Shown here: positions 1 through 45,810 of the stretch, in pieces
Numbering within the stretch: position 1 is the first letter of the stretch
How the letters are laid out: the number at the start of each line of letters is the position of its first letter
Origin: Marsupella aquatica
Lineage: Eukaryota; Plantae; Marchantiophyta
Assembly: GCA_973895155.1 (NCBI GenBank)
Contig: OZ316893.1
Coordinates: 22,355,844-22,419,843 of the forward strand
Direction of reading: 5' to 3'
DNA: 64,000 nt
Program-made: the position numbers and the translations under genes
The notes under the pieces: model-generated
Told to the model about the DNA's origin: nothing
What the model saw: the letters and a program-made list of their open reading frames with translations, nothing else
The model's database searches: none

Positions 1-1695
1 AGCAAAGGGGTTTTCTCTTGTGAGTCGGTGTAGGCCTACCTCTGTAGTAGTGTCCTGCATTGTTGCCGTTGCCGTTATTGTTGCCGATGCCGATTTCTTT
101 TCTTTCTCCAGTAGTTTCAGCAGACTCTGCATGCCTGGTTGCTGCATTGGCAAGTCCTCCTTCCTGGGCCTAAACACCTGCTCGATCGTAGGGCTAACAG
201 GTGGTTGAGGCTTCTCAGCCAACGGCCTCGGCGTTGGAGCTTCCTCGGGTGCCCTTACCTGCAGGGGAAGTACTGGGGCAAAAGTCTGACCTCTGGCATA
301 CCGGCACAACAGCGGCATGTGATAGCCAAGCCGCGACACGCTCCCCATGCCGATTACCTGCTGCTCCTCCTTTAAGATCTTCTTCAATTGGTTGAGGAGG
401 TACCCGTTGTAGTCCCGGCTTGGGTCTGGCCTTTCTGCCAGATAGACCTGTGCCTTGCCAATCTCTGCCCTCGGCAAGTTACAATGCATGGTCACCCGCA
501 AGAAGTCGATCATCTCTCCTATGTGCGGGTTGGTGCAGGTGTTCCAGAAGAAGCCATTCTTCGTTGATGGCCCGGGGAACGACCGGAACTCCTTGTCAGG
601 CAAGGTCTTCTTGGTATCAACTTTGGTCTTATTGCCTATCGGCAAGCCAAACACTTCGGCAATTACCTTGGGAGTAAGATAGAAATCCTTCCCATATATC
701 CTCGTGCAATTGGTCTCGGGTTCCCATGACCCCACGAATTCTAATAGGTCTGACTCCGGTACCTCCGGCTTCAGCCATGGTAATCTTACAAAGGCCTCTA
801 AGCCGGATCCGGCCATGAAGCCTTGATACTTCTTGGTCTGCATTGCCGTAAAGCATGCATCCTCCTCCCGTGCAAAATGTAGTTGCACTTCCACCGGTAG
901 GGTTGCCGCCTAGCCCTTCCAGGTGTCATCCCTGGTTGGAATGGCCTTGATGGGATCGACCTCCTCCTCTTCGGCTTCTCCCTGCCTCCTGTTCTGCTGC
1001 TTGGCTGGCTTCTTTGGTGCCGCCGACCTTGTTCTTTTTGCCGGGGTGGCTTCATTGTTGATGGCTCCCTTCCTCTTCATCTCTGCTGCCGTGGAGGTTT
1101 CTCCTAGCACCGTTGCCTGGGTCCACCTTTCCGTGCTACCCTTTAATTCCCAGTGTATGTCGTTGCAGTTCTTGATGGCCTCTCGGATGCCGACGACGCT
1201 GTCTTTGCAAAACATAAGATCGTCGAGTTGATTGGAGGTAGGCGTCCACAGGAACTCGTCCTTGATGAGTTCGCCTCCTAAGAAAGCCGTCTTCTGCAGC
1301 TCCCACAATCGAGCAAGCTCCTGCCGTTCTCGAGCTGCCCTTTCTGATTCCTCGTCCTCGTAAGTCTTGATGTACTCAGTTGCCCGTTCGAACAGGCATC
1401 CCCAGAAATGTGTCGCTTGATTGATGTTGCTCATACCCTCCTTAGGTCGATCGTCGGTATCTACTCTCTCCCCGAGTGCTTGCCCAAGCAGCTGACAGTA
1501 GTTGGCCTCCCGTAGTCGTCTGCCTAGTTCATGCTCGCAAATGAGCCACCATCTCCTACAAGCGCTCCTTACCCCTCTCCTCTGCCGGTCCTTCTTCCCG
1601 TTGATCCTTCCTAGCCGCCGACGCTTAACGCGCCCTAACCCTAATCAAGTTTTCACCCTCAGCGTCCTTACCTCCGGCCTCGGCCCGGGTTCCAT
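1..1695 (-). pseudogene. LTR-encoded ORF (>560 codons, 2 stops) with a PMD (plant mobile domain)-like segment
   Basis: ATG at 1695 (MEPGPRPEV), stops at ~1646 (TGA) and 910-912 (TAG), then open to base 1. Bases ~634-747 translate LLEFVGSWEPETNCTRIYGKDFYLTPKVIAEVFGLPIG, resembling the PMD core W..ET..F......T..DV...LGLP. Confidence 0.65.
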
Positions 1696-1810
1696 GGTTG
1701 CCCCTAATGGTTTATATTTTCCTTGTTTTGTCCCTATACTAAGGTGTTCCTAGGGTGCCTTCCTGCTTTACCCACTTAACTGGCCGAGTGATTCCTGTCT
1801 AGGCATCACA
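1..1810 (-). mobile_element. Long-variant LTR of the gypsy family at 9518-17170, running off the window start
   Basis: Reverse complement from 1810 begins TGTGATGCCTAGACAGG, like the LTRs at 9518 and 16408. Near-identical to them down to ...GGGAGCCAT (~1061), then continues differently with no LTR end seen. It interrupts the CACTA TnpD frame at 1810/1811. Confidence 0.9.
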
Positions 1811-4315
1811 ATACAACATAAATGTTGTGAGCTGTAAACGCTCTGCTGAGCCTATGAGACGCTCTCCAGATGCCCCAGTGAGTCTATCATCCTCGTAGTC
1901 AGCTCGTACCGCCTCATCTATCCATCCCCTAGGAGCACTAGGATCTAGTGTGGCAACTATGCTTGTACAGTAAAACATACTCTCTGCTCCAAGATGACGC
2001 TCCGCAATGCTACCTTCCACCCTAGCGCGATTAAAGACATATGACTTCATCACCCCCATATAACGCTCTACCCAATACATCCATCAACAATGTACTGGGC
2101 CTGCAATTGCAACCTCGCGCACTAAATGTATGAGGAAATGAACCTGACCATCAAAGAATGAGGGAGGGAGTGCCTTCTCCAACTTGCAGACAACCTCTAC
2201 TCCAAATATCTCCATAGCAGCAATGTCATCCTCCTGTACCTCCTTTTGACATACCCATCTTAAGAGCTTACCCAATGATCAAAGGGCATCACGAAGTTCC
2301 TCACTACCCAATCCAATAATAGCAACTGGAAGAACATGTTCAAGCAACCGATGATAATCATGTGTCTTCAAGAAAGATGGCCATTTTGGAGAATCCTCCC
2401 CCCCAAATGCCTTCCGAAGATTGGTACCATAACCTGTGGGAAACCTCATCAACCCAATACGTCTGCGAAACTCAATGCGCTCTGCCCTTGTCAAAACCCA
2501 AGGAGGATGGATGCTAGGGGGAGCACCAGGGGGGTCCAAAGATGGCCAAAAACCCAAAAGACCATGCATCCCCATCTCCTCACAACTTTCTCTCCAATTG
2601 TTATTTTTCTCCCCATATAGATGGCGAATCAATGATTTCCCCACATTCCCCTCAATGTGCATAGGGTCTAACAAGTGATTAATGGGCATATCTGACCAAT
2701 ATGGCAATTGTGACAATGCAGACAAACGGGTCATGCCACATCTGAATAATGGTAATGGATCACTCGGATCCTGAACTCTCCCCCATACCTCTCTCCAATA
2801 TGCTGGATCCTTCCGTTGAGGTTGAGGACAAATATCAGGTTGGCCCTCATCAGTATCATAAAGGAATGGATCACTCCTCCAAGGATGGTCTAGTGGAAGA
2901 TATTTAGTATGACCAATGTAAACAATTTTTTGCAGAGTACTTGACTTGGGCCTGGCCACCCCCTCCAAATCGGGTCCACATGTAGAGCAAGCTCGATAGC
3001 CTGATGTTTGCAATCCAGAAACATATCCAAACCCTGCCCAGTGCATAGAAAACACATTCATAAAATAAGGTTCATCAAGGCAAAAATCTGCATAATTGCA
3101 ATTAAATACAAGGTTTAGGTACTAGAGGAAATAAGGGTTTACCATAGCTGGTAAATCATGCATGGTCCACATAAGGATGGCCTTTAGAGTAAATACGCGG
3201 GATAAACCTCCTGTGTTGTGACGTCCATCATAACAATCCACTCCTCTCCACAGTTGTATCAACTCATCAATCAATGGCTGCAAGTACACATCAATCTTTT
3301 TAACTTGCTTAGGACCCGGAATAATCATGGAGAGTAGTAGGTGACCTTTCTTCATGGCCATCCAAGGAGGGATGTTGTAGTTTGTCAACACTACTGGCCA
3401 CACCGAATATGGTTTGGCTTTTTCTGTCAATACAAAAGGGCTGATACCGTCTGCTGCCAAGCCTAGTCGAACATGTCGTGGGTCAATTTTGAACTCTCCC
3501 CATCTATCCTCTACAAATTGATTGGCAGGAGAGTCAACCATCATCCGCATGGCACTAGAGGGTACAGCCATATCAGAACAATTTTGTGAGTGCCATACCA
3601 TCATCTCAGCCAACTCTGCACATCGGAATTGATGTCGCAATCGAGGGATAAGAGGAAAGTACCTCATAACCTTTTGCGGTACCTTCCCCGTCAACATGTC
3701 ATCACGGTACCGTGGCTTCTGACATTTAGGACATGTAGTGGCATTTTCATGCTCACCCCTAAAAAGAATGCAATCATCCACACATGCATGTATCACCTCA
3801 TACTTCAGGCCAATGGACCTCAACACCTGTTTAGCCTCTTTCCAAGAGGCTGGCAATGCATTGCCTACTGGCAAAATACGATCATGCAAGGTACGGAAAA
3901 CATCATCCAAAAGTAGATTGCTTGCCCCATGTCTTTGCTACAAGTTGAGCAACAACATTATTGATGAGAGCCGAGATAACCTACTCCCCTCGAATATGCG
4001 AGTACGGGCATGACGTTGCGCCTCCTCCCATTGCTTGTCTTGAGACCCCCTAGAAGGATGTGGATGACTAGTCCTTTCATGGGTTGAACCAATGTCCTCC
4101 AAACCAATGTCATCGTGATCATCATAGAATTGGTCCATGAGCTCATCCATGGCCCTCTCCTCATCAAGATGGTCTTGGATAGGATCATCACCATCATGTC
4201 GTACCCCATCCTCTTGCCTTTGCAGTTTATGCCCACGGTTGGCCACCATGGCCTCAACAAGGTGTTGTCGCATAGCTCGTGATATTACCCCAATATCAGG
4301 CGTTACATATTGATT
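1811..4315 (-). pseudogene. CACTA TnpD transposase (Transposase_21 and DUF4218-type regions), with stops, truncated by the LTR at 1810
   Basis: Motifs HACVDDCILF, YFPLIPRL, RHVRLGLAADG, YSVWPVVLTNYNIPPW, IDVYLQPLIDEL, LDPMHIEGN, LKTHDYH, PPSFFD...HL...GPV...WMYWVERYMG. Stops at 3938, 2279 and 2084; intron at about 3035-3150. Confidence 0.95.
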
Positions 4316-8767: not shown

Positions 8768-9517
8768 GTAAGCTGCATAAAAGAAGACAAGTGTTGGATT
8801 ATCAAAATAGAATTAATTAATGCATGAGATACAAAAGTCCTGTTGTACCTCAATGATACCTGCGCTTTGCCAGCCTACTGTGTCGTATTTTCTACACACA
8901 AGGTGTGGGACATCCAAAATCTTTGCATATATGGGTGAGCATTTTGCTAATGAGCATACATAATCTGTAAGTGCAAAAGAGTGTAGGAAGAACACACCAC
9001 ATATAAAAAAATTCCAACATACAAATTAAGTGTAAATGATGCGGCTCGTGAAGCGGGGACATCATACCTCCTGGATGCGCGGTTTCACACTATGCATAGT
9101 GCATTGTCCAAAACAAAACCTATCTACCCCCTCACAAATATTGAACCACCCCTCCAAACGCAAGGTACTGTGCATCAAATCCAACACAACCATTAGCCTA
9201 GCTAATATATGGAGGTTGAACCTTATCCTAAGAAAAGGTGTAACCTTATCCTAGTAAAACCCCATAACCCTAAGCCCATAAACCCCTCCAAAGAAATGAT
9301 CCAAATAGCTTTCACCAAGAAATGGTTCGTACAAAAACTTCTTGTAGTATTTTGTCTATCATATATCATAGTATTGAGTTCCCATCACCACAACCATCCC
9401 TAAACTTGCAAGGAACTTGCAAGAGGACATCATACCTCCTGGATGCACAGTTTCATGCATAGTGCATTGTCCAAAATCAAAACCTCCCTACCCCCTCAAA
9501 AAAAGTTAACCACCCCT

Positions 9518-10279
9518 TGTGATGCCTAGACAGGAATCACTCGGCCAGTTAAGTGGGTAAAGCAGGAAGGCACCCTAGGAACACCTTAGTATAGGGACAA
9601 AACAAGGAAAATATAAACAATTAGGGGCAACCATGGAACCCAGGCCGAGGCCGGAGGTAAGGACGCTGAGGTGAAAACTCGATTAGGGTTAGGGTGCGTT
9701 AAGCATCGGCGGCTAGGAAGGATCAACGGGAAGAAGGACCGGCAGAGGAGAGGGGTAAGGAGCGCTTGCAGGAGATGGTGGCTCATTTGCGAGCACGAAC
9801 TAGGCAGACGACTACGGGAGGCCAACTACTGTCAGCTGCTTAGGCAAGCACTCGGGGAGAGAGTAGATACCGACGATCGACCTAAGGAGGGTATGAGCAA
9901 CGTCAATCAAGCGGCACATTTCTGGGGATGCCTGTTCGAACGGGCAACTGAGTACATCAAGACTTACGAGGACGAGGAATCAGAAAGGGCAGCTCGAGAA
10001 CGGCAGGAGCTCGCTCGATTGTGGGAGCTGCAGAAGACGGCTTTCTTAGGAGGCGAACTCATCAAGGACGAGTTCCTGTGGACGCCTACTTCCAATCAAC
10101 TTGACGATCTTCTGTTTTGCAAAGACAGCGTTGTCGGCATCCGAGAGGCCATCAAGAACTGCAACGACATACACTGGGAATTAAAGGGTAGCACGGAAAG
10201 GTGGACCCAGGCAACGGTGCTAGGAGAAACCTCCACGGCAGCAGAGATGAAGAGGAAGGGAGCCATGGGACGCACCACA
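9518..10279 (+). repeat. 5' LTR
   Basis: TGTGATGC...GCACCACA; differs from the 3' LTR by about 13 transitions and 1 indel (counted by eye). Confidence 0.95.
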
Positions 10280-10283
10280 TTTT

Positions 10284-10300
10284 TGGCGCTAGATGGAGGG
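10284..10300 (+). promoter_or_regulatory. Primer-binding site, probably tRNA-Asn
   Basis: TGGCGCTAGATGGAGGG, 4 bp after the LTR; matches the complement of the plant tRNA-Asn(GTT) 3' end (TGGCGCTAGAAGGAGGG, from memory) with 1 mismatch. Confidence 0.7.
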
Positions 10301-10348
10301 GGCATTTCTTAAGCCGTGAGATATGAAGTTAGAACGGAAGCGTAGGTA

Positions 10349-13243
10349 ATGACTGACCTTACGCCGAGGGAAGAAAGAGTGATTCAATGGGAGAGAGCTC
10401 GACTGCAGCAGCTCGCCAGGTGGCATGATACACAACGACTGAGAGGGGCAGAAAGAGCTGGTAGCTCCGAAACTGGAAGTGGCGTCGAAGAAGACATACC
10501 AGAAGAAGAGTCGGTAAGGAGAAGTGAGTCTCCAACCGACATGGGGGAACCAAAGGCACGGCCAGACGAGAGGCCAGGGACCAGACTGAGCCAGCGGTCG
10601 TGCATACATTACAAGGCATTTCATGGGAGAGGAGATGAGGATCCGGACGAATAGTTGGATGATTTCGAGGGAACCGCTGCAGCAAATGGAGAATCGGCCA
10701 TCAAGATGCAGATTCTTCCCGGCCTGTTCAAGGGTGAGGCTAGGCCTTGGTACAGAGCATTAGATGTGGAAGATCAAGCCATCTGGGATATCTTCAAAAC
10801 ACTCTTTGTTAAGGAGTTTTGACCCATTGGAACTTCAGAACTAGCAGTGCTGAAGTTGGGACGACTTCGGTTCAACGAGAACAAATCCTTCAGGAAGTTC
10901 TTGCAACGCTTTCAGAAACTGGTAAGACGTACAAAGACCAATGCATCTGAAGGTATGCAACTTCAATGGTTGGTGAATGCTTTGCCACAGAAGATGAGTT
11001 TTGCAATTAGGAAGGAGAACCCGGAGACTTTAGCCAATGCAATTAAGGATATTCAATTATACATTAATGCAGATATCACAAGCCGGAAGAAACAGCTTAA
11101 GTCTGAGAGTTCCTCATCGGAGGAGGGATCACCCCATAAGAAAAAAGATAAGAAGAAGAAACATTCTAAGAAGTCAAGAAGTGATAACTCAAGCTCAGAT
11201 AGTGGAAGTAGCAAGAGTGAGTCATCTTCTAGTTCTGAAGAAGAAAAAACTAGGAAAAGGAAGGGCAGAAGGAGAGGGAGAAGGAGAGGAGAAGGAGAAG
11301 TATGGTGTGCCTTATGTTATAAAACCGGACACCATAAAGATGCGTGTCCTAAGCTTAATACTAATCATGTTCGGCATGTGGCCGAGATCAGACCATGTCA
11401 GGGAGAAGTAGAGTACTTTTTAGGAGATGCCGCTGATAGTGTTTTCGGCATCAGTGAGACTGGAGCACGAGACCTATCCAACAGACCTGCATCTCTATGG
11501 TCAGGGTTAAGGAACAATCCAGGAGAGATGTATCCTCGGATTATTCAGAACCCGTCAGTACCTCCTAGGCCGAATGTGCAAAGATTTGCGGCATGCTATA
11601 ATTGTGGTCAACCTGGCCATTTTGCTAGAGAATGCCCGAATGCACGCAAACAGGGTGATGGACAACCAACTCAGCTATGTATGGGATGCCGACAGGAAGG
11701 TCATATGCTAGGGCAATGTCCTACTTGGTTGGCAGGCCTGGCCGCAAATCATAAACTTTTGCCGGTCAAGATCTTACCGCCAGGTACTACCCCCGGAGGA
11801 GTTCAAATCAACCACATCAAACTAGGATGGCAAGAGGATGCCGAGGCAGAGTTCGTACCATCTGATGATGAGGCCGAAGCCCTATCAACCTTCTCAGAAG
11901 AGGATTTAGATCATGATTGCTACCGGGTCTCTACTCGATCTACCAGAAGGAAGGAAAGGTGGGATGGGCTGGCCAAAAATAAAGGGAAGGTTACGGAGGA
12001 AAAGATCAACTCTTCGTCAACATCAACGGAAGGAGAAGGGAGGGCTCCGGCAATACAGGTAAGCCATGAGCCCACCAGTGAACCCAATCCTTCACAAGAT
12101 AGCGACTTCAATCGAGATCATCCTAAGTTGTTCTACCCCTCTGTTACGGCTAGTGTTAAGGAACAACTAAGAGAATTAGAAACCCTGGAGAATACCGAAG
12201 CCATTGCCAAGGATGTAAAACGAGCAAAAGCATTGTTTGCTTCGGAGGACCCAACAGCTGTGGAGACTAGCGTGGCAAAACTGGCCGAATCCAAGACGGA
12301 GACACCACCAGAGGAGAAGCCGATTGTTCCCTATGACCTGGCTAAAGATGTACTAGAATCTAGAGTCTCAGCAACAGTAGGTCAACTATTGAAAAATAGC
12401 CCGTACTTCCGGAAGCAATTAAGGAAGGCTATTCTCGGCAAGCCGAGATTACCCAAGGTAGCAACCAGATCCGACGTACTAATGATAGAAGAAGATCAAG
12501 GAGCCCCAGCATTACCATTAATGATTCAAGGAGAATTATTACTACGGGTACCCATCGATGGAGGATCAGGGGTATGTATTATGATTGATTCAACAGCAAA
12601 AGGGTGGGGTCTAACACCGGAGATGACTAGAAGAGTGTTGAACATGGCCAATGGATATCAGGTCATTCCCACGGGAGTGTTAACCGGCATCAAGACAGAG
12701 ATAGGAGGTATCTTCTTTAGCATTAACTATGTAGTAATGAAGCCGGTAAATCCTACGTCATTCCGGCTATTGATTGGTAGGCCATGGCTGTACCTAGCCG
12801 AGGTAATAGAAGATTGGGATAAAAAGCAGTTCACTTTTGGGACCCCCTCTATCACGGTATCCTGGGACACTAAGGATGACCGTAGGAAAAGCATAAGGGA
12901 AGTAGATGGGTACGACAGTGGACTGGAGTCAGCCGATGAAGTACGTTGGTTAGAATGCCTCACTGACCTAACCGAAGAAAGTGTCTTTGGACCAGAGGTA
13001 CCCCCCAGCGGATTATGGCAAGAACCAATGGAAGGTGACTTGGAAGAAGAAGACGAAGAGGTCGATGACTGCTTTACAATAGAATCCACCTTTTTAGCTG
13101 CAATTCCGGAGGAAGTAAAGGATGTAGACCAATTGGATGAAATGGCTAAGGGGGGAGCAGTAGCAGGGACAGTGGATTTTCTGCAGGCGTTGTGGCAGAG
13201 CCAGCAGGGTTCACAATGCCATCGATCATCGGCAAGGAATTAA
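10349..13243 (+). pseudogene. gag: gag-protease
   Basis: In-frame stops at 10652 and ~10820. Three CCHC knuckles (CALCYKTGHHKDAC, CYNCGQPGHFAREC, CMGCRQEGHMLGQC); protease IDGGS...LLIGRPWL. Confidence 0.9.
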
Positions 13244-16200
13244 ATACCAAGGGATCGGCATACAAGCCGATTACGAGGGCAGAACAAATTGAGGCCCTAT
13301 TAGAAGCCGGGAGAGCACAGCGGCCTGACTCTCAGGAGCAAGAGGTGGATGAGATGGACAGACACAATCCAGAGCCAAGGCAGGAAGGGGAGCCGACCAC
13401 CAATTCAAAACCGAATAGACCGGCAAGGGGACAATCTATGGACACCAAGGAAGGGACCGACTCGGCTAGTCCAGCCAAGATTCCAGTTTATGGAGGTATG
13501 AGATTGGAGCCTAGACTGGAAGCCAAACTGGACCCGAATTTGAAGAAGCAGATTAATATGATCCAAGCACGGCAATATCGGAAGCTCGACTTAGGAGAGG
13601 GAAGAGAACTGAACTTAGGGAGAAACCTAGCACCTGAGCTCGAGAAAGAGATCAGTGACTTATTGATTGAATTTCAGGATGTGTTTGCATGGAGTCACCA
13701 AGATCTAAAGGGAGTAGATCCAACACTAGGGGAACATCGAATTGATCTCATGTTAGGAGCCAAATCATTTCGACAACCAATTCGAAGGATGAACCCGAAG
13801 TATTCCCTGCTGGTCAAAACGGAAATCGACAAACTAGTGGAAGCTGGATTCATCACTCCAGTCCTGCATTCAGACTGGGTGTCTCCAATTGTGATAGTTC
13901 CCAAGAAAGCTGGACCCGATGGTAAACCCAAGATCCGGGTTTGTCAGGATTACAGGAAGCTGAATGAAGCAACATTAAAAGACCATTTTCCTTTACCGTT
14001 TACTGATATGGTACTAGACATGGTAGCCAGTCATGAACTATATTCATTCATGGATGGGTACTCTGGTTATAACCAAATCAGGATTCGGCAGGAAGACCAA
14101 ATCAAGACGGCCTTCATCACGGAATGGGGGATCTATGTCTTCAATCGTATGTCGTTTGGACTCTGCAACGCACCAGCTATGTTTCAATGATTAATGGTGA
14201 ACATTTTTCATGATTACTTGAGAAAGTTCATGGAAATCTTCATTGATGACTTTGCAGTATTCGGGAAGGCATCGAAACATGCTAAATACCTCAGGAAAAC
14301 CTTCATGAGATGTAGAGAGGTGGGTCTCAAGTTACACCCAGATAAATGTTTCTTTGCAGTAACCGAGGGGGTGCTACTAGGTCACAAGGTATCAAGGAAG
14401 GGCATTGAGATTGACAAAGGTAAGCTAGCAGTATGGCTAGATATCATGCAACCTAAGAACATAAAGGATGTAAGATCCTTCTTGGGATGCATTGGTTACT
14501 ATCGCCAGTTCATCAAGGATTTTGCCAAGCTAGCTTTACCATTAACTAACATGCTCAAGGCAGGAGCAGACTTCGAACCCACACCCGAACGAGTCACAGC
14601 GGTGGTAGAATTGAAGCAGATGTTAGTAGAGGCCCCAGTCATGATAGCACCAGACTGGAACAAAGATTTTCATGTTTTTGTAGATGTCTCGGGCTTCTGT
14701 ATCGGCTCAGTACTAAGTCAGTTGGATGAGAAAGGAAGGGACCATCCCATATACTTCGCAAGCCGTCAGCTTGCCGATGCCGAACGGAACTACTCCACCA
14801 CAGAGAGAGAAGCATTAGGAGTCATTTATTCTTGTAAAAAGTTTAGGCATTATTTACTAGGGTACAAGGTAATCTTTCATACCGATCATGAAAGTTTGAA
14901 GTACCTAGTCAATAAGCCGGACCTTACAGGCAGAGTAGCAAGATGGATTTTGCTATTACAGGAGTTTGACTATGAGCTGAGGGTCAAGCCGGGAAAGTTA
15001 CACGCCAATGCCGACTTCTTTTCAAGGATCACAGGTGAACCTGCCACGGATTGCATTGATGATTGATTCCCCGACGAGGAGCTATTCGTTGTGGAAATAG
15101 CTGATACATGGTACCCTGAGATTTTACAATTTCTCAGCACTTCCAGATTATAGCCAGGATTAAGCCGAGAGCAAGCCGCAGTCTTTGTGCGGAAGGTCAG
15201 ACATTATCAGTGCATTAAAGGCATACTGCACAAGCATGGAATCAACGGCACGATTCAAAGGTGTTTGGAAAAGGGAGAGGTAAAACGAGTCCTACGGGCC
15301 ATGCATGGAGAGGAGGCCGGAGGACATTTTGCCCCAGTAACCACGTCTAAGAAGATATTAAATGTCGATTACTGGTGGCCCACCTTGCACAAGGATGTCT
15401 ATCAGTTTATCAAACAATGCGATCCTTGTCAACGAGCGGGAGGACCAAGGGCGTCCACCAGACATCCACTGCACCCTATTCTACCTCTGGCACCATTCGA
15501 GAAGTGGGGTATTGATTACATTGGACCTCTGAAACCACTGACCCACCCTCGACGGAACAAGTACATAATCCTGGCTACGGATTATGCAACTAAATGGGTA
15601 GAGGCCAGACCAACAACGAAGGATGATGCAATTACTACAGCTAGATTCATGTATGAGCAGATCTTCACCAGGTATGGAGCACCCCTAGAATTAGTTAGTG
15701 ATAGAGGAACCCATTTTTTGAATGATATAATTAGTCGTTTAAATGAGCAGTATTTAGTTAAACATAGGCCTACTACTCCCTACCATCCAAAGGCAAATGG
15801 GTTGACAGAACGAGCAAACAGAATTATAGGAAAGATATTGAACAAGGCAGTAGCTCAGAACAAACTCGATTGGGATGATAAATTGTTTGCTGCTGTTTTT
15901 GCTTACAATCTTGCCTATAAATCCACTACCGGTCATACACCCTTCTTCTTAACCTTTGGACAAGAAGCCCTGGTACCCATGCAACTTGAGATACTGACAT
16001 TTCAAGTTACAATTGAGGAAAGAGCCTCAGCGGAGGAGAGCCTAAAGGAGCGAGAATATAGGTTAGAAGCTTTAGAGGAGGCGAGAATGATTTCAGCCGA
16101 GAGAGTAGAATATAGAAAGAATATCATGAAGCAGCAGTATGATAAAAAGTTGAAAGTAGTTAGTATTCACACCGGTGATCTTGTGCTACTTTATGACAGT

Positions 16201-16419
16201 AGGTATAGTAGGTTTCCAGGAAAGCTTTTCACTCGCTGGTTAGGACCCTTTAGAGTAACCATGATGTTCCCCAATGGCTCCGTACAATTGGCCAACATTA
16301 CGGGAGAGGTATATCCAGTTCGCATCCATTATGACCGCCTCAAGAAATACTATATGGACGAAGATGAAGTTGTTCGCGAGGACGCTTCACAATTAAGTGG
16401 GGAGCTATGTGATGCCTAG
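13192..16419 (+). pseudogene. pol: pol: RT, RNase H, integrase
   Basis: DYRKLN, MDGYSGY, FGLCNAP, FIDDF; RNase H DVSG...EREAL...TDH; integrase H-H-C-C, WGIDY, SDRG, NGLTER, GPF. Stops at 14188, 15064 and ~15150. Confidence 0.95.
16391..16407 (+). promoter_or_regulatory. Polypurine tract
   Basis: AATTAAGTGGGGAGCTA directly before the 3' LTR; a near-identical tract occurs in the second gypsy element. Confidence 0.75.
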
Positions 16420-17170
16420 ACAGGAATCACTCGGCCAGTTAAGTGGGTAAAGCAGGAAGGCACCCTAGGAACACCTTAGTATAGGGACAAAACAAGGAAA
16501 ACATAAACAATTAGGGGCAACCATGGAACCCGGGCCGAGGCCGGAGGTAAGGATGCTGAGGGTGAAAACTCGATTAGGGTTAGGGCGCGTTAAGCGTCGG
16601 CAGCTAGGAAGGATCAACGGGAAGAAGGACCGGCAGAGGAGAGGGGTAAGGAGCGCTTGCAGGAGATGGTGGCTCATTTGCGAGCACAAACTAGGCAGAC
16701 GACTACGGGAGGCCAACTACTGTCAGCTGCTTAGGCAAGCACTCGGGGAGAGAGTAGATACCGACGATCGACCTAAGGAGGGTATGAGCAACGTCAATCA
16801 AGCGGCACATTTCTGGGGATGCCTGTTCGAACGGGCAACTGAGTACATCAAGACTTACGAGGACGAGGAATCAGAAAGGGCAGCTCGAGAATGGCAGGAG
16901 CTCGCTCGATTGTGGGAGCTGCAGAAGACGGCTTTCTTAGGAGGCGAACTCATCAAGGACGAGTTCCTGTGGACGCCTACTTCCAATCAACTCGACAATC
17001 TTCTGTTTTGCAAAGACAGCATCGTCGGCATCCGAGAGGCCATCAAGAACTGCAACGACATACACTGGGAATTAAAGGGTAGCACGGAAAGGTGGACCCA
17101 GGCAACGGTGCTAGGAGAAACCTCCACGGCAACAGAGATGAAGAGGAAGGGAGCCATGGGACGCACCACA
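16408..17170 (+). repeat. 3' LTR, containing an open frame from 16523 to the LTR end
   Basis: Direct repeat of 9518-10279. Confidence 0.95.
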
Positions 17171-20100
17171 CCCCTCCAAAAGCAAGGTACTACACATCAA
17201 ATCCAAACACAAAGATTAGCCTAATGAAGGGGTTTAATATTATCCTAACAAAAGGTATAATGTTCTACTAATAAAACCTCTACATACACCCATAATCCCC
17301 TATAAAGAAATGAAACAAAAGGCTTTCACCCGAAATGGTTCATACAAAAACTTCTTGTAGTATTTTCTTGATCCTATATTACATATCATAGTATTGAGTT
17401 CCCATCACCACAACGTAACCACCCCTAAAACACCAAGACTCTATACACAATTGCATCATTCATTAATTAGAGCCCAATATATTAAGCATGCAAGACCATA
17501 GCTTATCAAAAAAATTACATAGTCCGGTACAAACCCCAAAATTTGTTCTCCGCAACAAAGAAACTTGCAAGAGGTCCCTCTACATGCATGACACGTTCAC
17601 TGTCCCGTTCACATATGTAGAGCCCTACAAAACGCGGATTCAAATATGAAAGCAAATAATAACTCCAACCATGTGCCCTTACCCCATACAAAACCTAAAT
17701 ATCCTAAATTATACTCTAAACCCTCCAATCCCATACCCAACCCAAATTCAAAACATTATATTGGACCCCCTTTGGGAAAGCCAAGAGGTATCCGATATAA
17801 CTTCATGAGGGGTCCGATGCAATAGGAAACGGGCCACACTTGGTAAATACACGGCCACAAGAAAAGGACGAGGGGTCTGAAGCAGATAGTTTTGGAAAGT
17901 CTGATTGCGTGTCCGATACCTTTGGTTTCGCAAAGTTCGAAACAAAAAGAATCGGAAGCAGCAGGTTTTGTTTCAGAAAAAAGAACCGATGCAGGTGCGA
18001 AGACCCGCGCGTCGGGCCCCGTTTCGCACTTGGTGTTTTTCAAATTTTTTGAAGCTGGATCAAGGAGGAGAGCTTGAAGGAGGAGGAGAGATGGAGGGGG
18101 GCGGGGGATCAGGTGGTGGTGGAGAGCAAAGGGGACCGTCCCAGCCATACAATGAAGTTATGAGGGACATTTTTGTGGCCAAGGCAGGGCTGAGTGTGGA
18201 GGACGCAGAGAGAGTAGTCCCACTCCTCCAAACGCTGATTGATGCCTCTTGGCGTGAGGCAGAGAAGACTGCTGCTGCAAGCATTGCAAGTGAGAAGGAG
18301 GCAAAGAAGAGGAAGAAAGAGGCAAAGAGAGGCAAGGGGGATGTAGAGGAGACACTGTCTCCAAGAAAACAAGAGAAAAAGCTTCGAAAAGAAGCTAGGG
18401 CAATTGAGAAGGTGCGATTGGAGGAGCAGAGGCAAAAGGAGGCAGAGAGAGCTCTCAGGCCTGAGCTAGCTCTCAATTCGGGTGGTGGTCCATTGCCTAA
18501 GAGCTACCATCTATTCCGAAGCCAATTCAAGCAGGTGCTGAGGGCCAATTTGGGGCCATTGGATTACTGGGGCAAGAAGAAGGAGGAAGAGAGATTGAGA
18601 ATCAGAGAGCAGGTGAAGGAACGGTTCAGGAACGGGGCCTACATTGATGACAGGTTCCTAAACAAATGAATTTCAGCATCACTCTCAGACATGCGCAATC
18701 ATCAGCGAGAGAAATTCAGAAAGTACCTTGGAGATATGGCAGTGGATGCAGAGGTGATCAGGGAGGAGGGTTGTCCAGACGATGTTTCCCCGGATGAGTG
18801 GGCGGCTTGGCTTGAGGAGGAACTCTCAGTCCGTGCCTGGCTGAAAAGAAGACATTGGGACAACGAAATTAGGCTGGCAGAGGAGAAGCGAAAGGCTGGG
18901 GAGAATGTTGATATCCTCCCCCTTCAACAGAACCTGCAACAATGGGCAGCTCAGGCAGCAAGACTCCCCAAACCACCAAGATCACTATATTCATTAAAAC
19001 TGAAATTATAAAGGATATAGGGAAATTTGGCGATTTAAAAACATAGTTTTAGGCATGAAAATTGTAAATTTGGAAGATGAAAAATGAAAATTCAAGCATC
19101 ATTAAATGTAAATTTCGGGACAAAAAAATGAAATTTTGGGAAAGTAAAATATTAAATTGGATGATATTAAAAAACATTTGGGTGATAAAAGTGTTCATTT
19201 GGTTGGAAAATAGATAGAATCTAGTAATAACATATAAGCTTGGATAGCATCTATATTCAAAACATTTAGCTTGAGTAAGATATCTAACTAAGCACCAATA
19301 CAATGGAATGACTATAGTGTCTAGACAAAGTTAACTAGGATGATATCCAACCTACTAGAAGGAATGAAATGGCATCATTTTCTAGAATTAAAATATACTA
19401 AGACAAATAAAATAATAATTATAAGAAAGTCCATTCAATAGCTTTGAGAGATCATAGAGTATTAATTTGATTGTCTTGTTCTCTCACTTTAGACAAACGC
19501 ATGGAAATCAACTCGACCCTCTTAATCACAAGTCATTTGAGTGGAGACTTGTAACCTACGAGTTCTATCAATCTACTCATCAATTATACCTTCCATGTAA
19601 ATTTTGAGAGTTTTCAAAACATTCTTAGGAATTGTCAAACCTCTATCCATAATATTTTGTTCTTTAGCACCTGACTTAAACCCATACATTGCAGAATTTG
19701 CAAACTGCCAACTTTGAGTAACATTGTCAAACCCAGGATCCAGCTCCCAAGTCTTAGTGGTTTGAAAGCAACGTTCATATCGAACATCATCCTTTGCATC
19801 ATGCTTACCATGTTTAGGCCTCCACCATTGTACTTGGAACATAGGAGCATTCCTAAGAGGAATGCTCTCAACAGACGTTGAAGAAGACCCTTCAATATGT
19901 TGCAAATCTGTTGAGGGAACCTCATGGTTTGGATCCACACCACCCAAAGCTCGAACCAACCAGAAACGCCCTTTGCCATTTTCCTGTTCCCATTCATCCT
20001 CTGGACGTAAAAATACAAAGTGACCTTCTTGAATATCTTGTAGAGGAATCCAACGTGCAGGTTCTCGCTCTTATCGTGCACCAACAAAGGGTGCAGCTTG

Positions 20101-21642: not shown

Positions 21643-24600
21643 TCAAAGTGTCCATTGCAAAGGAATTCCTCTACTCATTTTTAGGACTTCCATTCCTGTC
21701 TCTAGTCTTCCTATGTCGAGAAAGGGAATCACAATGTTTTTGCTTACGGTAGCTTCCCAAATTTCACACCCTTCTCTCACCCGCTTATTTAGCCAACTCA
21801 CATGGACATTGATGGAATTCTGTGTTCCTTCATCCAGAGTTGCGTCAACAAAGCTTTCTTCTTCAGGTTCATCTTGGAGTGTATTTTCCATAGAGTCAAC
21901 ATCCATAGCTTCGGCAAGAGATGAACCTCCTTCAGTCCGGCCCTGTGCTAGATCTTCAACACTCCTTACAACCGCCAGTCTCAGCCTTCCATGTACACGA
22001 ACCTCCACCACATCATGTATTTTGGGGTAAGTAGGGCATGTATGAAGGCCATATGTTTCTATATGTTGACGCTGACTTCTGTCTTGAAGTTCCAGGCATA
22101 CAATCTCAGAGGAACCTCTTCCTGCTTGTCGACTAATGGGCATAAATTTATGCAATAAACGAGAAACTGGTCGAAAACTGGTATCACCATAGTGTTCGGC
22201 CGTGGCTCCAAGCAATGGCAAACCTGAGAGCTTGTCAGTTATCATCTGATTATCAAGTGATCTTTGTATACTGAACCACTTGGCCTCAAAAAATAACTCC
22301 TGGTGTCCCAGAAATTCATGGACAAATAAGTCTAATATGACTGCTCTCCAATTCCAACTGTATTATGGACTGTCCTCGTCATCTGTCAATACTACCACAT
22401 GGTCACCAATCCTGAAAAGAGTGTTCCTCACCACTACAGATTTCAAAGGGATAACTTTAAAATCCATGACAGTCCTAAACAAGGACGTTGCCAGCCCCTG
22501 AAGAGCCCAATGCCATTTGACAAAATTGCTGCCATCCTCAGAAAGTAGACGCTTCTTCGCCTTTGTTCTACCTACTCCTATTCCTCTAGAGAGAATGGAA
22601 ATTGCACAATGAGAATCGACAGCAAATCTACTCATATTTTTAACTAGTGAAAGAGCCTGCTCTTGTGATGAGACTACAACAATACAATTCTCATGCCATT
22701 TAGGGCAGGTAAAGTCACGTTTGTCCCTTGCTGCATGCTCAATTGCTCTGGCTCCTGTTGGCCTCAAACGGTTGTGTGCTTCCAACAGTGTACGATGCTG
22801 TGGCAGAAATCCATCATCATCATTCCAAATCATCATGCATGTTTTAGTAAAAAACTGCCTGACGTGATGGGAGGTGAAAGTTAGCTCCATTTCCTTGTTG
22901 TTGGTGGCAGTCCGTCCATAACCAGAGACCATACGTTCGAACCTGTAGCACCAATACACCCAGTGTGGACCATGTTGTTCGATGTCATCCAACAACTCAC
23001 CGCTACCTACAAGACAAATTACATCTCATTTGTAAGATGAGTGATCGAGGCTAAGCAGTCTGCAGTTGCCTTGAAAAAATAGCATAAAAAATTACATCCT
23101 AAAATATTTCTGTAACAAACCTGCAACGTGTTCGAGTATAGAGGCATTAACTCCAAAATGCTCCTCACTCCTCACCCGCCATGAAGCCAACAGACTTCTT
23201 GCCTTCTCCAAAGTTGACTTCCTCCACCCCTCCTCCCTACTTTGAATGTAAAAGAGTCTTCCGATCTCAAATAACAGCATGCCAATTGAACCTAGAGGAT
23301 TTTCAACTCCTAATCTCAAGCTATATAGTATGTGCGGTAGACAAAATATAACAAATCGAGTATATTCTTCAGCTTTGAAGTAACCTAGTCTGTCCCCAGG
23401 ATCTTTCGGCCATCTCCCATCCAGACCTTTAGGTTTTCTGGCAGTCACTTCTGCTAAGGCCTCCTCTAAAACTTTGGTTTGGGAAGGTGTCAAACTTTTC
23501 ATCAATTTTGTTACATAGCTCTTGAATAAGTTGAGCGCAAGTATATGCATGACATCATATACTAAATCAGATATCAAACAGAAACCAAAGGTATCGCTTA
23601 ACCTCCAAGCCTTTGCCAACTGGTTAATTCCATGCTCTTGGGATATGCTTACCCTTGAAACTTCTGTTGTACAAAGAGAGTACCTCTGGGCAGCATCTCT
23701 AATGACCGCCAAATCTCGTTTGGCAGGAGGGTACCGCTGCAAATAACGATTGTTACCATACACAGTAACTCCTTTGGGCCCTCTTCCTGAAGTGTTTGAT
23801 TGTTTTTTCCACGTGCCTTTCACTAGACACCTCCTGCACGGTGCCTTCCCCCTCTGGCACCACCCTCCAAATTTGCATTGGGCCGGGTGGTCTCCTGTAA
23901 ATAACATTAGTCTCACCCTACAAGTACAATCTTTTGAGGTGATAAGGTCATGTATTAGCTCTGGCGCATATGAAAAATGAAGAGGGAATCCGGCAACTGC
24001 CAACATTTGCACGTCTTGGAAAAATGGCTCCATGAAAGCTTCCAAGAAGTGCAATTTAAGCTTGGTGAGTTTTTCAGTAGCACTGTTTGGTATAAACAGA
24101 ATGGGAATAGGTTGTATGTCAGAATGGCTACCCACATTCAGTATACTTATCTCCACTGTCCATGTGCTTCTCATAACTGAAGATGCTGATTGGAAACCAT
24201 CCCAGTGAGCCATTAGTGCAATATTGCGAGGGTCCCCCTGCGTACAATAAGAAAAACAATTTAATTAGCATGAATGATCGAAGTCAGAAGGAATCCAAGA
24301 GAAAAGAATGATTCTCAGATTAGCAAACCATCACAACGACAACGACAACGACATTCAGAGGCCCATTCAGAGGGAAGAAAAACAGTTATTCAGATTAACA
24401 TGCATGTACTGACAGCGCCGCATTCAGAAACGATCAAAGAGAGAGAAACAGGTTTCAATATTCTAAGCATAAGAGCATGTAATATATGGCAGCTGGCTGC
24501 ATTCAGATCGAAGAAAGCAAAGAGTGCAATCTAATTAAACAGGTTTTCAAATAAAATTTATTAGAAGTATCATGGAGATTTTCAGAGGGAAGTAATTGAG

Positions 24601-26023
24601 AGCAGACAAATTCATGGAACATCAACGTACATCATTTGGCTAGTACCTGAACATATACTGGCCTTATTTGGAGCCGATTTCCGCAAGTGCACACAATGTC
24701 ATACATGTGGATGTCTCCCACCAGCTTCAATCCTTGGTTCAAAAGGTCGCATTTCTCTGGGTAGGTAGCATAGCCTTTCCAACAAGTCTGGCATACCACA
24801 GGTAACTCATAGGTGCAACACGGGTCCCAGAAATAGGAGTTTTGTTTGGCTTTCGAGCCATCCCACCATTCGCTAATTACATCGTCTTTGAGACTCCCAA
24901 GCTGGAGCCAACGAGCTCTCTCCCTCCACATGGTTAGTATTTCATGGCAATAGCTTCGTGATCGACACAAATGAGATATCAATGGCGCAATAGGCAGGTA
25001 ATCAAACCTTAACATATCTTTGCGCTTGATTCTACACCCGAAGACATCACATCGCTCGCTGCAGGTTTCACAATCTCTGCACAAAATATTCTTGCATAGA
25101 GAGCACTTACAACTCTTGCTCGTTGTTTTTGCTTGGTCATCCTGGATGCTTGGTCCAAAGGCCTTAGGTTCGTGAAAGTTGTCGTCAGCCCCCAAACACA
25201 GACGCCATTGATGTGGTTGAGGTGCGCCCATCACTTTGTAAGCAGCCGCCAAGCCATTGAAAGTCCCCAAGGAAGGTATTCCTAGTGGACCACCATCCCA
25301 TTGAGTACCAGCATACCTCAGCAGTGAGCCAAGGGGTACATTCCTGTAGTCAATGACTGGACTTGCATCGATTGGTTTGAACAAAGCTCTCAAAATCTTG
25401 TCCTGCAAGTCCATAGAAACTTTAGCAGAATCCAACATGGACTGGAGTCTCCATGTCTCTCTATAAATAGCCTCGCTCAAAGTCAAAGGAATTTCGTTGA
25501 GTACAGCGGTTGAGTAGTCGTTGCATCCAACATTATCAGACAATGGCATAAGAGTTTCTGCACCATCCACCCCATCCTCTGTTGCACACCCAACATCAAA
25601 AGCACAATAGCTTGCTGGGATTGCATCAGGGTCACTTGCATACGTAGACCGAGGGCCATTGACAAAACCAAGCAACGGTCTGAGGAGTAGCGTGCTTTGT
25701 ATTCTCCATTTGGAAGTCCTTGACAGCTTTGCAAAATCAGATGGAAGATCTGATTGTTGACGTGAACAATCTCCAATCACATCAGAGGACTGCCCTTGCA
25801 CTATTCTATCTCTTGGTCTTTGGGTCGACACTGCTGCCTTGTGCAAAGGAGGGTGGACCGGAACATGCCGCGCATCTATGAGAATGCCTTGTTTATCCTT
25901 GAGTCTATGATGACCTCTAGTTCTTTTGCTCACCAAATCAAAGCCGTCAGACATTCGTGAACATCTATACTTGCAATCACATCTGACTTTCAAACTCAAA
26001 TCAAAATCCTCCATGTTGCGCAA
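21643..26023 (-). pseudogene. Divergent EnSpm-type transposase of element C, 3 exons, one stop
   Basis: Exons about 26023-24647, 24237-23121, 23006-21643. Motifs YLPI, WWDGS, RNIALMAHWDGFQ, FTGDHPAQCK, PCRRC, YDVMH, FKAEEY, HGP...WCYRFER. Stop at 22363. Confidence 0.85.
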
Positions 26024-26379
26024 GAGTCGTAGACAAATTTTCGCGACAAAAAAAGAGTAATGGACAAGTCTGGGCTGCCCACTACGTACGTACTAAGTTG
26101 TCAAGGTCTATAGTATACTTCTGATTGAGTCATTCATTAGCTTCACAGGTCCTGATCCTGTGCGGTCCCCGGCCTACCCTTATCGCAGCCCAGAATTGAC
26201 TCACAGCCTGGATGTGCTGGGATTTGGTGCTGGGATTTGGTGCATTGCATTGAAAGCATATTTGAGCACTTGTGGGGCCAGTTAATTGAAAAACAAGCCT
26301 ACGGTAGTACTATACGTGAACCCAGCTTTGGCCTTTGGGCACATGTGGGGCCAGTTTATCAGTTCTTTGGCGGGCCCCT

Positions 26380-39073: not shown

Positions 39074-41222
39074 TATGATATATATATATGTCATGTTTGA
39101 CTTCAGCAACCGAATCCTAATATATAGAGATCTAGGGTTCACTAGTAGTTGACTAGTAGTCAATAATATATAATGGCCAACATATATGTTAACTGTAAAA
39201 GATACCTATGCAATTAGGTGGATACAAATGTAGTAGACTTTTACCAATTGTACATTGATACAATTATTGTAATTCAATGGAGGCTGGTGCTACTACCTCT
39301 AGCTCCTGCTATTTCCTATATAGTATTATATTTGTCAGTGAATTGAAATACCAGCATGAGTACTTTGTCTTATGCTCAAAAGGTTGAATTGGTTTGCTTT
39401 GTCTACTAAAAGAATAATGTTTGCTTAAATAAATATTTTAAATTATAAAAATTGGACAACTGAGATGAAAAGAGATCGAGCCTTCTTATTAAGGTTGGCA
39501 AAACAAGAAACACTTCTCATTATAATATTCAGGTATATACGTTGACAAAGAAAACGTTTACTGTACTAGGAATATTGAATTCTCCAAATAGGCTGATGTA
39601 AATCAAGGAATATACAAAATACCCAAATCATTTTGCAAAAGTAGGATTTTACAATACCCCAAAGTAGGATTTTACAACATGCCTATGATTTATCTTCAAG
39701 GACTTTGTCCCACATGTGAAATCTGGGTATATTGAAGTTTCCTATGCCGTCCAAACAGCCAACATAACATCCCGGGGAATGTTTCATAAACCCATTTAAG
39801 GTCAGTTTCCCCACTTCTTTGTCAAAAATATGGGGGAAATGGGTTTACATCTAGGATATTAGCCAAGGTGGGGGTAAGACAGAAACTCCTTGTGTCACTT
39901 GACGGCTGAGATGTCCCCAAAATCATCTTGTAACCTGTGCCATGGTTAGTCTTTGGCCAAAAATCAGTTGTCAATGGCAAATGTCTTTCCCCCTCCCCTT
40001 CTATTGTAAGTTCCTCGGACAGTGCTTGCACAAGATTCTCCCAATATTTGACCAGAGGAAATCTCTCTTTATATGCTGCAAAGGTCTCATCCTTACAACT
40101 TTTCTTCAAGAAATCAATATAGCAATTAAGGAATGGGATGATTTCTCCAACTTTCTTTTGTACATCCCTAGATATAGGTTTTGCAAATGGTTGGCCTTCC
40201 GGTAAAATGAGCGCATTTGTGATGGGATCAGTTCTCCAAATGGACCTCCCCATTGCCGGAAGCCAAGGTTGCTTGACATGTGCTTTATATTGATACACTG
40301 GCACATTATCCCTCATGGAGAAAAGAAATGCCACTGGTTTTGAGTGACCTTCTATCTCTTTCACCTGGAAAGTTTTCAAATACTCCTTGTAAGATGCAAC
40401 CTCTTGAATCAATCGTGGTACAGGATGAATGCTTTCACACTCCCAAACCTCAGCCATCAACCCCAAGAGGGTAGCAACCTCTTTGTATCTGACCTGTTTG
40501 GATACTTGAGAAAATAATGCATCCACGTCTTCATGGGTGTGGCCAACCATGAGGAATGACATTTGCACAGTTTCAAACACCCCCCTGCTAACAAGCTCAG
40601 TGCAAAATGCCATCACATATTGATTTTTGTTATCTTTCCCTGAATTGTCCATCTGCAACGTTAGGTGCCTTGGTAAGGGCTTGAAAGAGCCCCTAGTAGT
40701 CTCAGGATCATCCTTAGAACCAACATCCACTGTGCTTGACTTTTTAGTCTCCTGACCATCTTCAATGCCTTGAAATCGAACAATTGAAACATTTTTGGGT
40801 TCCAAGTAACCAGCCAGAAATGCTTCAAAGTCTAGAAGGGACTGAAATATTGGCCTAGTTGCATTCCAATTCAATCCCTCAAGAAGGTCTCCAGTTTTGT
40901 CTCCTGTGTAATCTTCCAAATCTTGGAGGCATTTGGCCAAAGATGTCACGGTAAAGTCTGCATCTCCAGGCCAAAGTCCAGTCAAACTGAAATGTGCATA
41001 CACTCCAGGATCTCTTCCATGGGTTAACATCCCAGTAAGAGCAATAGGCAAAGGCTGACCACTACCAGAGAGGGATTTTGGAGTGGGGACTAACCTGGGG
41101 ATCCAAGTCTTGGCTTGATCCATCTTATCGTGAATAATGCAAAGATAGTTTTGAGGATCCTTCTTTGCAAGAACCCTATGAGCATAGTAAACATATCTTC
41201 TTGACATTTGTTCACGAAGATG

Positions 41223-43552: not shown

Positions 43553-45470
43553 AGATGTCATGCTCTTTTCTCTTCAATCTCTGCACGCTCTTTTTTACTC
43601 TTCTCCCGCATCAATTGATCTTTGAACTCAGTGCAAAATGTGCACTTGGCAAATGCACTTCCCTTGTGAAAGTCAAAATTATCAAATGAGTTTTTCCAGA
43701 TGTTGTACATAGTAACTTCAGTAACCTTAGCAAACCCATCTAATTCCATCTTGGTAAACACCTCTTGGAAAATCTCTTTCTTAGTAAAACAAGATGGGAG
43801 CCGATATTCAATAGTGTCAGTGCCGTTGGACCCACCATAGGGAAGATGTGGCATTGGTTCCCCATTTTGGATTAAAATGGACTCCAACAAGGCGCGAGCG
43901 TGCAAAGTGCTTGATCGTGTCTTCCGTTGTCCCTGATTTCCATGGAAACCAATTGTGCAACCAGCTTCGTATTGATTTTTGTAGTCATAGTACTTTGTTG
44001 TATTGAACCCATGCATTTTAATAAATGCATCTTTACAAACCACACGTCCCTTTAGAACAAAAAATCCCTTTCTCTTGACTTGCTCCTCTCTACACCCAAA
44101 GAGACTAAAGATGTGACTTGTTTTGTTGTCACTTGACATTCCATGGTATTCCCTCCTCATTGCCTCTAAGTCCTCCCTGGGCATGTTCAAGCAACACTTC
44201 AGCTTGCAACAACCTTCTCTTTGGATGGAATCAATGGACTCGTTAATTTTCAAAAGTGCCCTCGACTCCAAATGCTTTTTCTTCCTCTCCTCAAGATCAA
44301 CTTATGTCCTCCTAATGAAATTGTATGGTCTTTTTGTAGGTTTACCATCACCATCCGAATCCGGATCGCCCTTAGTTCGACCCGACTCCATCCACTTCTC
44401 TGAAACTTCCTCAAGGATATCCCCAAGAAACCTTTGAGACGAAATCAATGGAAGGGATTTGATTTCCCACCTCACCAAGCCAGGGGTACCAACACGGATA
44501 TTTGGAAATAATCCGGGTTCATTGATATTCACAACAGCAACACCAACATGATCTGCACCAAGAAGTTCATCGTCAACGGCACCTGTTTTAAATGGGACCG
44601 TGATAACACCTGTTGCAACCTTTCGACAACGAGAAGCGTCATACAAATCAACCTCCTCCGCCATCCAGTTGGAACGTAGTGTAAAATCTTTTAATGGAAG
44701 ATCATTGAAAATATTTGAACTACCAAACACGCCAAAATCTCGTAGAGTGCCCTTTCTAGAAACATGTGCAACATCCCAGATAACCCAGGTATGCAAGGCC
44801 TCTTCTATTGTATCAGCTCTAGGGTGCGAGTATGGCAATTTTTGATTTCCCTTAACAATATCAGATATTCTTATACTGATGCGACCAACCCCGAGTGTTT
44901 CAGTATGACAAATATCCATCGGATTTGTCTTGAAAACGACTCCATTTGCAACCAACTGATCAAAAATGAACATCTGAACTTCATCTCCTTCCTTGAACAC
45001 GTCCTCTTCAACCCTTGCATCAATTTTGGATTTATCATTTCCAGCATCTCCACCCAAAGAGAAATCATCGACATTGATTATTCGGCGCTGAGTTGATGAC
45101 TTCAAGTATGCCAATGCACAGTCCCAAATCACGCAGGAGTCAATTGCCTTAGCCAATGTAGAAAATTTGGGCGAAGGAAATGGAAGTTGACGCGATCCAT
45201 CAAAATACTTTTCGATCAATACCCCAATTCGATTGTCCCCTAGACAAATGTTCTGTATAGTATCCTGGGGTTCAACCTTTTGAACTATCCCAATTGCCAT
45301 TTCAAATCCATCGATCACCAATGACACTTCATCCCCTCGTGTAAAATTGATCATGATAGCGGACTATCTGTATTCAAATAAAGTTAGAAATTGTTAAGTT
45401 CCCCATGTTACAATCATGTTTCAAAATCTGGACTCTCCTCCAAAAAATATTGTAAAATCACTCAAAACCC

Positions 45471-45810
45471 TAAATACATTCAAGTCGGGTCGGAATTATT
45501 TCGACCCTCCTCCAACATTATGTCTTGAAATGATTGAATTGACTAAACATTTATAAGTCGGGTCAGAATTATTTCGACCCTCCTCCAACAATATGTCTTG
45601 AAATGATTGAATTGACTAAACATTTACAAGTTGGGTCGGAATTATTTCGACCCTCCTCCAACAATATGTCTTAAAATTATTGAATTGACTAAACATTTAC
45701 AAGTCGGGTCGGAATTATTTCAACCCTCCTCCAACAATATGTCTTAAAATGATTTAATTGACTAAACATTGATAAGTTGGGTCAGAATTATTTCGACCCT
45801 ACTCCAACTA
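45471..45810 (+). repeat. 73-bp tandem array, about 5 copies, each with a 21-bp palindrome
   Basis: GGGTCGGAATTATTTCGACCC core at about 45487, 45560, 45633, 45706 and 45779; a further partial copy at ~45903-45928. Confidence 0.92.

Follow-up and report, generated by a model that had tools for sequence, protein, structure and literature searches.

The minus strand at the left edge of the window (the whole stretch of Marsupella aquatica DNA analyzed here, 64,000 nucleotides) carries part of a long terminal repeat (LTR) of a Ty3/gypsy retrotransposon, and a long sense reading frame runs through it. Judged from the statistics of the frame, from other copies of the LTR, and from related proteins, this frame is a genuine accessory gene, conserved and carried in the LTR of a gypsy family. 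The features on which the argument rests are as follows.

1..1810, minus strand: 5' part of a Ty3/gypsy LTR, TG start at 1810; continues beyond the window edge and thus exceeds 1,810 bp
1..1695, minus strand: sense open reading frame (ORF), 565 codons up to the window edge; ATG at 1695, which is LTR base 116; stops at codons 17 and 262
1434, minus strand: next in-frame ATG within the sense ORF, a possible true start
1711..1716, minus strand: TATA-like hexamer at LTR base 95, 21 bases ahead of the first ATG; a consensus match only
1811..1815, plus strand: flank ATACA, candidate target site duplication (TSD), partner beyond the window
1814..3937, minus strand: degenerate CACTA transposase gene adjoining the LTR insertion (Tnp2, PF02992; DUF4218, PF13960)
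9518..17170, plus strand: full-length gypsy element from the same family; its LTRs (9518-10279 and 16408-17170) are short and have TG...CA ends
1063..1070, minus strand: 8-bp microhomology with the same letters as 10257-10264, common to the true 3' end of the LTR; break point of the short-LTR deletion

The sense reading frame and its conservation

The ATG and the two stops bear out a preliminary description of this DNA, which had reported a sense frame beginning about 115 bp inside the LTR and extending for more than 560 codons apart from two stops; the peptide quoted there is present in the minus-strand frame running from 1695 to 1. Each of the remaining five frames contains 14 to 30 stops, and none of 2,000 base shuffles gave any frame with two or fewer stops (minimum of 4).

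Contigs from 4 of 15 public sequencing runs (X1, X2, X4, and X6, from four studies) were aligned to the window. At both stop places, 97.5 to 100% of the contig depth carries a different letter in every one of the four runs, and codon 17 is not a stop in either short LTR of the element at 9518-17170. Since other copies differ at both places, the stops belong to the copy at 1-1810.

Variants among the contigs were predominantly silent. Synonymous changes made up 19 of the 35 variants, compared to 34% expected (P = 0.010), and 20 of the 35 fell at third codon positions; these 35 are the in-frame rows among the 40 best-supported of 247, and they include mutations private to the window copy. Within positions 250-909, 8 of 11 variants were synonymous (P = 0.010). 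The 3' part of the N-terminal region gave 9 synonymous variants of 16, with one of 17 rows omitted for a second letter at one place and neighbors in the same codon classed singly. The three LTR copies within the window showed no synonymous excess (synonymous/nonsynonymous counts of 4/12, 6/8, and 2/10), which would be explained if their differences mainly reflect decay after insertion.

Long and short forms of the LTR

The LTRs of the element at 9518-17170 are 762 and 763 bp long and 13 substitutions apart. The element is bounded by the TSD CCCCT on both sides, with a primer-binding site at 10284-10300, which we take to resemble the Tat type, and a purine tract at about 16395-16404. Its Pfam domains follow the Ty3/gypsy order, namely zf-CCHC, a weak protease match (E = 0.3), RVT_1, RT_RNaseH, Integrase_H2C2, and rve, and its gag-pol is disrupted by stops and a frameshift. 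The coding sequence occupies the internal region, as in the descriptions of Phygy and Selgy in the part of PMC6317226 cited here, and the short LTRs lack the VANC-like domain described below. The element is a young copy, and its flanks (9147-9394 and 17169-17414) are 78% alike, which suggests insertion into a local repeat.

Both of these LTRs match positions 1810-1061 at 97.6 to 97.9% identity over their first 750 bases; 1810-1061 lacks only the last 13 bases of the short form. Contig cover is unbroken over 1-1810 and drops past 1810 in all four runs. Both results agree with the claim in the preliminary description that the ORF lies within a long gypsy LTR. Contig depth in X4 is about fivefold higher over the ORF (195 to 207) than over the primer-binding site and gag region (33 to 42), as LTR sequence would give, while X6 shows no excess (14 to 30 versus 22), and depth of this kind is not a copy number. 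The gypsy family with the LTR ORF is heavily amplified; X1 and X2 each contain thousands of its contigs.

The relationship between the two forms was read from the joints. Contigs in all four runs depart from the short LTR at 10261-10264 and continue as window position 1060 and below, and two X4 contigs (947-1221 and 947-1127) span position 1061 with more than 31 letters on each side. In two of the four runs, the LTR end is preceded by letters other than those before 10257 (nine contigs in X2 and one in X6), and the X6 contig that holds the LTR end continues through the primer-binding site into gag, to 10485. The short joint is bridged by none of the X6 contigs and by none among the matches listed for X1, X2, and X4. 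The eight bases at 10257-10264 are therefore found twice, once within the ORF and once immediately ahead of the true LTR end, and a deletion between the two places gives the short LTR. By this sequence comparison, the element at 9518-17170 has 763-bp LTRs because of a deletion at the 8-bp microhomology, and the long LTR is the normal form of the family. The identical deletion is present in both LTRs of that element and therefore dates from the reverse transcription that produced the copy, or from an earlier time, likely through a template jump at the microhomology.

In the four runs, no contig extends from the ORF as far as the distal LTR end. The LTR end and primer-binding site are absent from 1-1810 at three or fewer mismatches, and a 13-base search with the letters upstream of the far LTR end returned only scattered matches at the two-mismatch level, all outside 1-1810. 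Because no polypurine tract lies ahead of it, the copy at 1-1810 must be a solo LTR or the 5' LTR of an element. We infer the link between the ORF and the far end from the joints, and on this basis the normal LTR very probably exceeds 1,810 bp and contains the ORF together with its folded domain.

Protein regions and relatives

The predicted protein is divided into four regions.

1061..1434, minus strand: N-terminal region, also present in the short LTRs; no Pfam match at E of ≤1
910..1080, minus strand: low-complexity linker rich in charged residues (25% K+R), whose basic clusters may form a nuclear localization signal
268..900, minus strand: folded domain of about 210 residues, predicted VANC21/PMD-like, stop-free in the window copy
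1..267, minus strand: low-complexity tail rich in proline, still open where the window ends; several hundred residues longer in relatives

The folded domain is not strongly basic (27 K+R, 24 D+E). A phmmer search with positions 250-909 against 1.84 billion representative sequences returned 24 matches, including 20 true relatives, the best with 42% identity over 209 residues. The other four (P0005, P0006, P0011, and P0012) were repeat-protein artifacts and were removed. A profile built from the 10 most distant relatives retrieves the window frame with 140 bits. Two alignment-based searches found at least three and at least two proteins, and a word-seeded search with a single 303-residue protein found no homolog among 958 candidates. 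All relatives with an organism name are products, themselves without a name, of the liverwort Calypogeia fissa, including CAM6082161.1, CAM6090539.1, and CAM6122807.1, and full-length relatives have 600 to 890 residues with long charged tails. In one C. fissa gene model (P0034), a gypsy RT-RNaseH-integrase is fused on the same strand to the C-terminal part of a relative, which places that relative downstream of pol.

The N terminus is less readily traced. BLASTP gave no match to relatives in either of two comparisons, pairwise scores exceeded 997 of 1,000 shuffles in one case of seven, and a four-sequence profile did not find the window frame.

Predicted fold of the domain

The preliminary description had called the protein PMD-like and named the Pfam PMD profile as a check. 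No match to PF10536 was found for the window protein (E of ≤1) or for any of the 26 alignment members (E of ≤10), and at the same thresholds neither the window protein nor the 26 members gave a Pfam match to DUF1985, ATHILA, or Transposase_28/32. The VANC21 chain in the PDB had no sequence match to the domain, even by profile at E of ≤10. By these sequence tests, the domain falls outside each named family (PMD, VANC/DUF1985, ATHILA, and Transposase).

An AlphaFold2 model of the domain from the 26-row alignment reached a pLDDT of 76.4 and a pTM of 0.77, and the other four models scored 53 to 58. A fold predicted without an alignment (pLDDT of 32.5) was discarded. Foldseek ranked DNA-bound VANC21 (9lnj_A) first in the PDB (E = 0.076, probability of 0.93, TM of 0.49), and the next rows had probabilities of 0.01 to 0.03. 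VIA-align against 48,161 chains also ranked VANC21 first (9lnk_A, 203 residues aligned over chain residues 291-552, rmsd of 4.3), with a Z of 8.9, only slightly above the 7 to 8 that is typical of the best row when no clear match exists and below the 13 to 14 that helical models can reach. It was the only chain of the 48,161 with a Z of ≥5; the runner-up had a Z of 3.1, and a second comparison gave a Z of 8.6. Taken together, the alignments cover 200 to 203 of 220 residues at 9 to 12% identity and an rmsd of 4.2 to 4.3. The match is moderately strong and concerns a predicted model; its strength comes from the gap in scores, the coverage, and the identity of the match as a plant transposon protein, because Z itself is near the level typical of no match.

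A library of viral structures gave no match at E of ≤0.001 (best E of 0.06, TM of 0.31). Atlas neighbors of one relative were Transposase_32 (0.84) and ATHILA ORF-1 (0.83), which at <0.9 serve as leads only. No PMD structures were among the PDB search results, and the fold may still be that of PMD, since VANC and the PMD proteins MAIN/MAIL1 are described as structural homologs in the cited portions of bioRxiv 2024.09.27.615353 and PMC13547354. From the model, the domain likely belongs to the PMD/VANC structural group. The term PMD-like thus survives at the level of the predicted fold, through the indirect link of VANC21 and the published homology, and falls at the level of Pfam membership; the proposed structure prediction gave a match to VANC21 and to no PMD structure. 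The family of this LTR-borne domain escapes standard domain scans.

Other features of the window

A second gypsy element lies on the minus strand at about 59771-63520. Its pol is about 66% identical, its LTR is about 500 bp long with TG...CA ends and a TATA-like box, and it has no accessory-domain match; given this ordinary LTR, not every related element carries the LTR gene. A 606-codon open frame at 56875-58695 on the plus strand has no Pfam match at E of ≤0.01. Long frames interrupted by stops (360, 172, 435, 339, and 353 residues) occupy 48436-53883 on the plus strand, the last of them with an NLI-interacting-factor-like phosphatase domain (PF03031) and two others tested with no Pfam match; these frames are possibly cargo of a large DNA transposon. 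Transposase-like frames occur at 39822-45363 on the minus strand, and one of them matches DUF7869 (E = 5e-45); close by are two tandem arrays, one of 73 bp (45481-45808) and the other of 65 bp (47703-48202). Tnp2 is weakly matched (E = 0.0024) in a second degenerate transposase region, at 21643-26092 on the minus strand.

DISCUSSION

The closest structural counterpart of the LTR protein is VANC21 of the VANDAL Mutator-like DNA transposons (PDB 9LNJ and 9LNK), in which residues 291-552 match the predicted fold over about 200 residues. Both are transposon-encoded accessory proteins with variable flanking regions, but the LTR protein is encoded in a gypsy LTR rather than in a VANDAL DNA transposon, has the low identity given above, and has no DUF1985 match. 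VANC is described as dicot-specific in the cited part of PMC13547354, whereas the relatives of the LTR protein are from a liverwort. VANC target motifs stand in tandem arrays; no array of the VANDAL kind was found in LTR positions 1-1810, and the noncoding 3' part of the LTR lies beyond the window. DNA binding and demethylation by the LTR protein are proposed by analogy only.

With gypsy-encoded PMD-A and the host proteins MAIN, MAIL1, and MAIL2, the LTR protein shares the status of a gypsy accessory ORF and, through the indirect VANC link, probably the fold, but it lacks a PF10536 match, and PMD is characterized as ubiquitous in angiosperms in the cited text of PMC5418596. Excerpts of PMC6317226 report PMD in the extra ORFs of 57% of Ogre elements and name PMD, Transposase_28, or ATHILA domains as common in the extra ORFs carried by Ogre, Retand, and Athila elements. 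ATHILA ORF-1 (PF03078), Transposase_32 (PF20167), and Transposase_28 (PF04195) are, like the LTR protein, long accessory proteins of nonchromovirus gypsy elements; the first two are the Atlas leads noted above, and the HMMs do not match.

It is the location of the gene that sets it apart. The extra ORFs of plant gypsy elements are placed in the internal region in the portions of PMC7264820 and PMC11963269 cited here, and those of Retand are antisense, between pol and the 3' LTR (PMC11963269, same portion), whereas the present ORF is in sense orientation in the LTR. The superantigen gene sag of MMTV, in U3, is likewise a coding gene inside the LTR and is present in both LTRs (PMC12548423, in part), but it belongs to a mammalian betaretrovirus, its protein and function are unrelated, and the layout alone is alike. 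Among the matches listed by exact-phrase searches of the open-access literature, there was no plant case of an LTR that houses a gene, which is weak evidence of absence; a promising phrase in an excerpt of PMC6673714 refers to ORFs between the LTRs.

A possible mode of action follows from the position of the gene and from the studied proteins that share its fold. Transcription would start from the TATA-like box at the start of the LTR. The usual spacing from a TATA box to the start site puts transcription initiation near LTR base 120 to 130. Such a start would fall just past the first ATG, and the protein may therefore begin at the ATG at 1434. The gene would then belong to the R/U5 part that is transcribed and would precede gag on the genomic RNA, and poly(A) addition inside the LTR could yield a separate message, also from solo LTRs. 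The protein would be imported into the nucleus through its basic linker and, as VANC21 and MAIN/MAIL might lead one to expect, would bind a motif in the DNA of its own family in a sequence-specific manner. It would thereby shield copies of the family from silencing in trans, including deletion derivatives such as the element at 9518-17170. It could act in trans from solo LTRs as well, and the element would likely carry its own DNA-binding defense with every LTR left behind.

VANC21 binds a nine-base motif and brings about the loss of DNA methylation across its own family, according to the cited part of PMC5735166; MAIN, MAIL1, and MAIL2 counteract Polycomb at promoter motifs, according to that of bioRxiv 2024.09.27.615353. 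We favor an anti-silencing role because both kinds of studied protein with the VANC/PMD fold oppose silencing. MAIN/MAIL1 were initially described, in an excerpt of PMC5418596, as required for silencing, and the direction of the effect may therefore be either. A shared fold alone does not establish function. Argued by analogy, the proposal as a whole, that the LTR protein is a sequence-specific DNA-binding anti-silencing factor which shields its own family in trans, has in our judgment an even chance of being correct.

Other explanations accept the gene and its fold but not its role. The protein might tether integration to chromatin, activate transcription from the LTR, or handle genomic RNA, which we consider unlikely but worth keeping in view: the accessory ORFs of Tat, Retand, and Athila elements are credited in the cited portions of PMC7264820 and PMC11963269 with predicted DNA binding only and no established function, and no arrays of target motifs were found in the visible LTR. 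This reading has to contend with the fact that both studied branches of the fold, in the sources cited above, act on silencing marks at DNA motifs, and with the short-LTR element, which inserted with a clean TSD though its LTRs lack the domain, so that the domain is dispensable in cis. Alternatively, the protein could restrain its own family by controlling copy number or promoting silencing, as MAIN/MAIL1 were first thought to act. The mail1 and main mutants do release transposon silencing (PMC5418596, in part), and a gene present in every LTR would be expected to scale with copy number, but later work attributes the release to lost MORC1 expression and has PMD-C proteins opposing Polycomb (bioRxiv 2024.09.27.615353, in part), and the family is heavily amplified. 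We regard self-restraint as improbable.

Two further explanations question the structure or the location of the gene. The resemblance to VANC21 could be a chance likeness between helical proteins, with the LTR-borne gene encoding an unrelated fold; the Foldseek E value of 0.076 is not significant, identity is low, the rmsd is high at 4.2 to 4.3, the alignment of 26 rows is shallow, only one of five models exceeds a pLDDT of 60, and no profile match was obtained. Such a coincidence is rather unlikely given that nearly the whole domain is covered, that two aligners rank VANC21 far above the next row, and that both the match itself and the Atlas leads are plant transposon proteins or families. 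The part below 1061 could also lie outside the LTR, as a nested insertion or as internal sequence from a different element, with the joint at 1061; the preliminary description had named a chimera at about this position as the result that would speak against it. No contig runs from the ORF to the far LTR end, and the other two LTR copies in the window cease to match at 1061, as such a chimera would have it. The reading frame nevertheless continues through 1061, the joint is seen in every one of the four runs from four studies, other letters precede the LTR end in two of these runs, the 8-bp microhomology explains the short form, and the listed contigs do not bridge the short joint, all of which leaves a chimera very improbable.

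Recombination to a solo LTR normally removes the genes of an element. The layout proposed here is unusual in that such recombination would retain an LTR-borne gene. In the papers cited here, sequence-specific anti-silencing is shown only for VANDAL DNA transposons, and PMC12844716 treats it as an open matter for LTR retrotransposons. The LTR protein is a concrete anti-silencing candidate whose domain is free of stops and can be put to assay. Whether the gypsy PMD or the host PMD came first is left "fully open" in that of PMC5418596, and VANC has been proposed to derive from captured MAIN-like genes (PMC13547354, in part); both the ancestry of PMD and the origin of VANC are touched by a member that is carried by a gypsy element and has relatives in a liverwort. 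Carried to its full extent, the anti-silencing proposal becomes tentative: a bryophyte gypsy lineage may have placed a VANC-type, sequence-specific anti-silencing gene in its LTR, turning every solo LTR into a self-contained cassette by which intact copies as well as deleted ones are protected in trans, although we think it somewhat unlikely that all of this holds. If it does, retrotransposons would have used the PMD/VANC fold as a weapon before flowering plants arose, which would favor the view that the host MAIN/MAIL genes originated from transposons.
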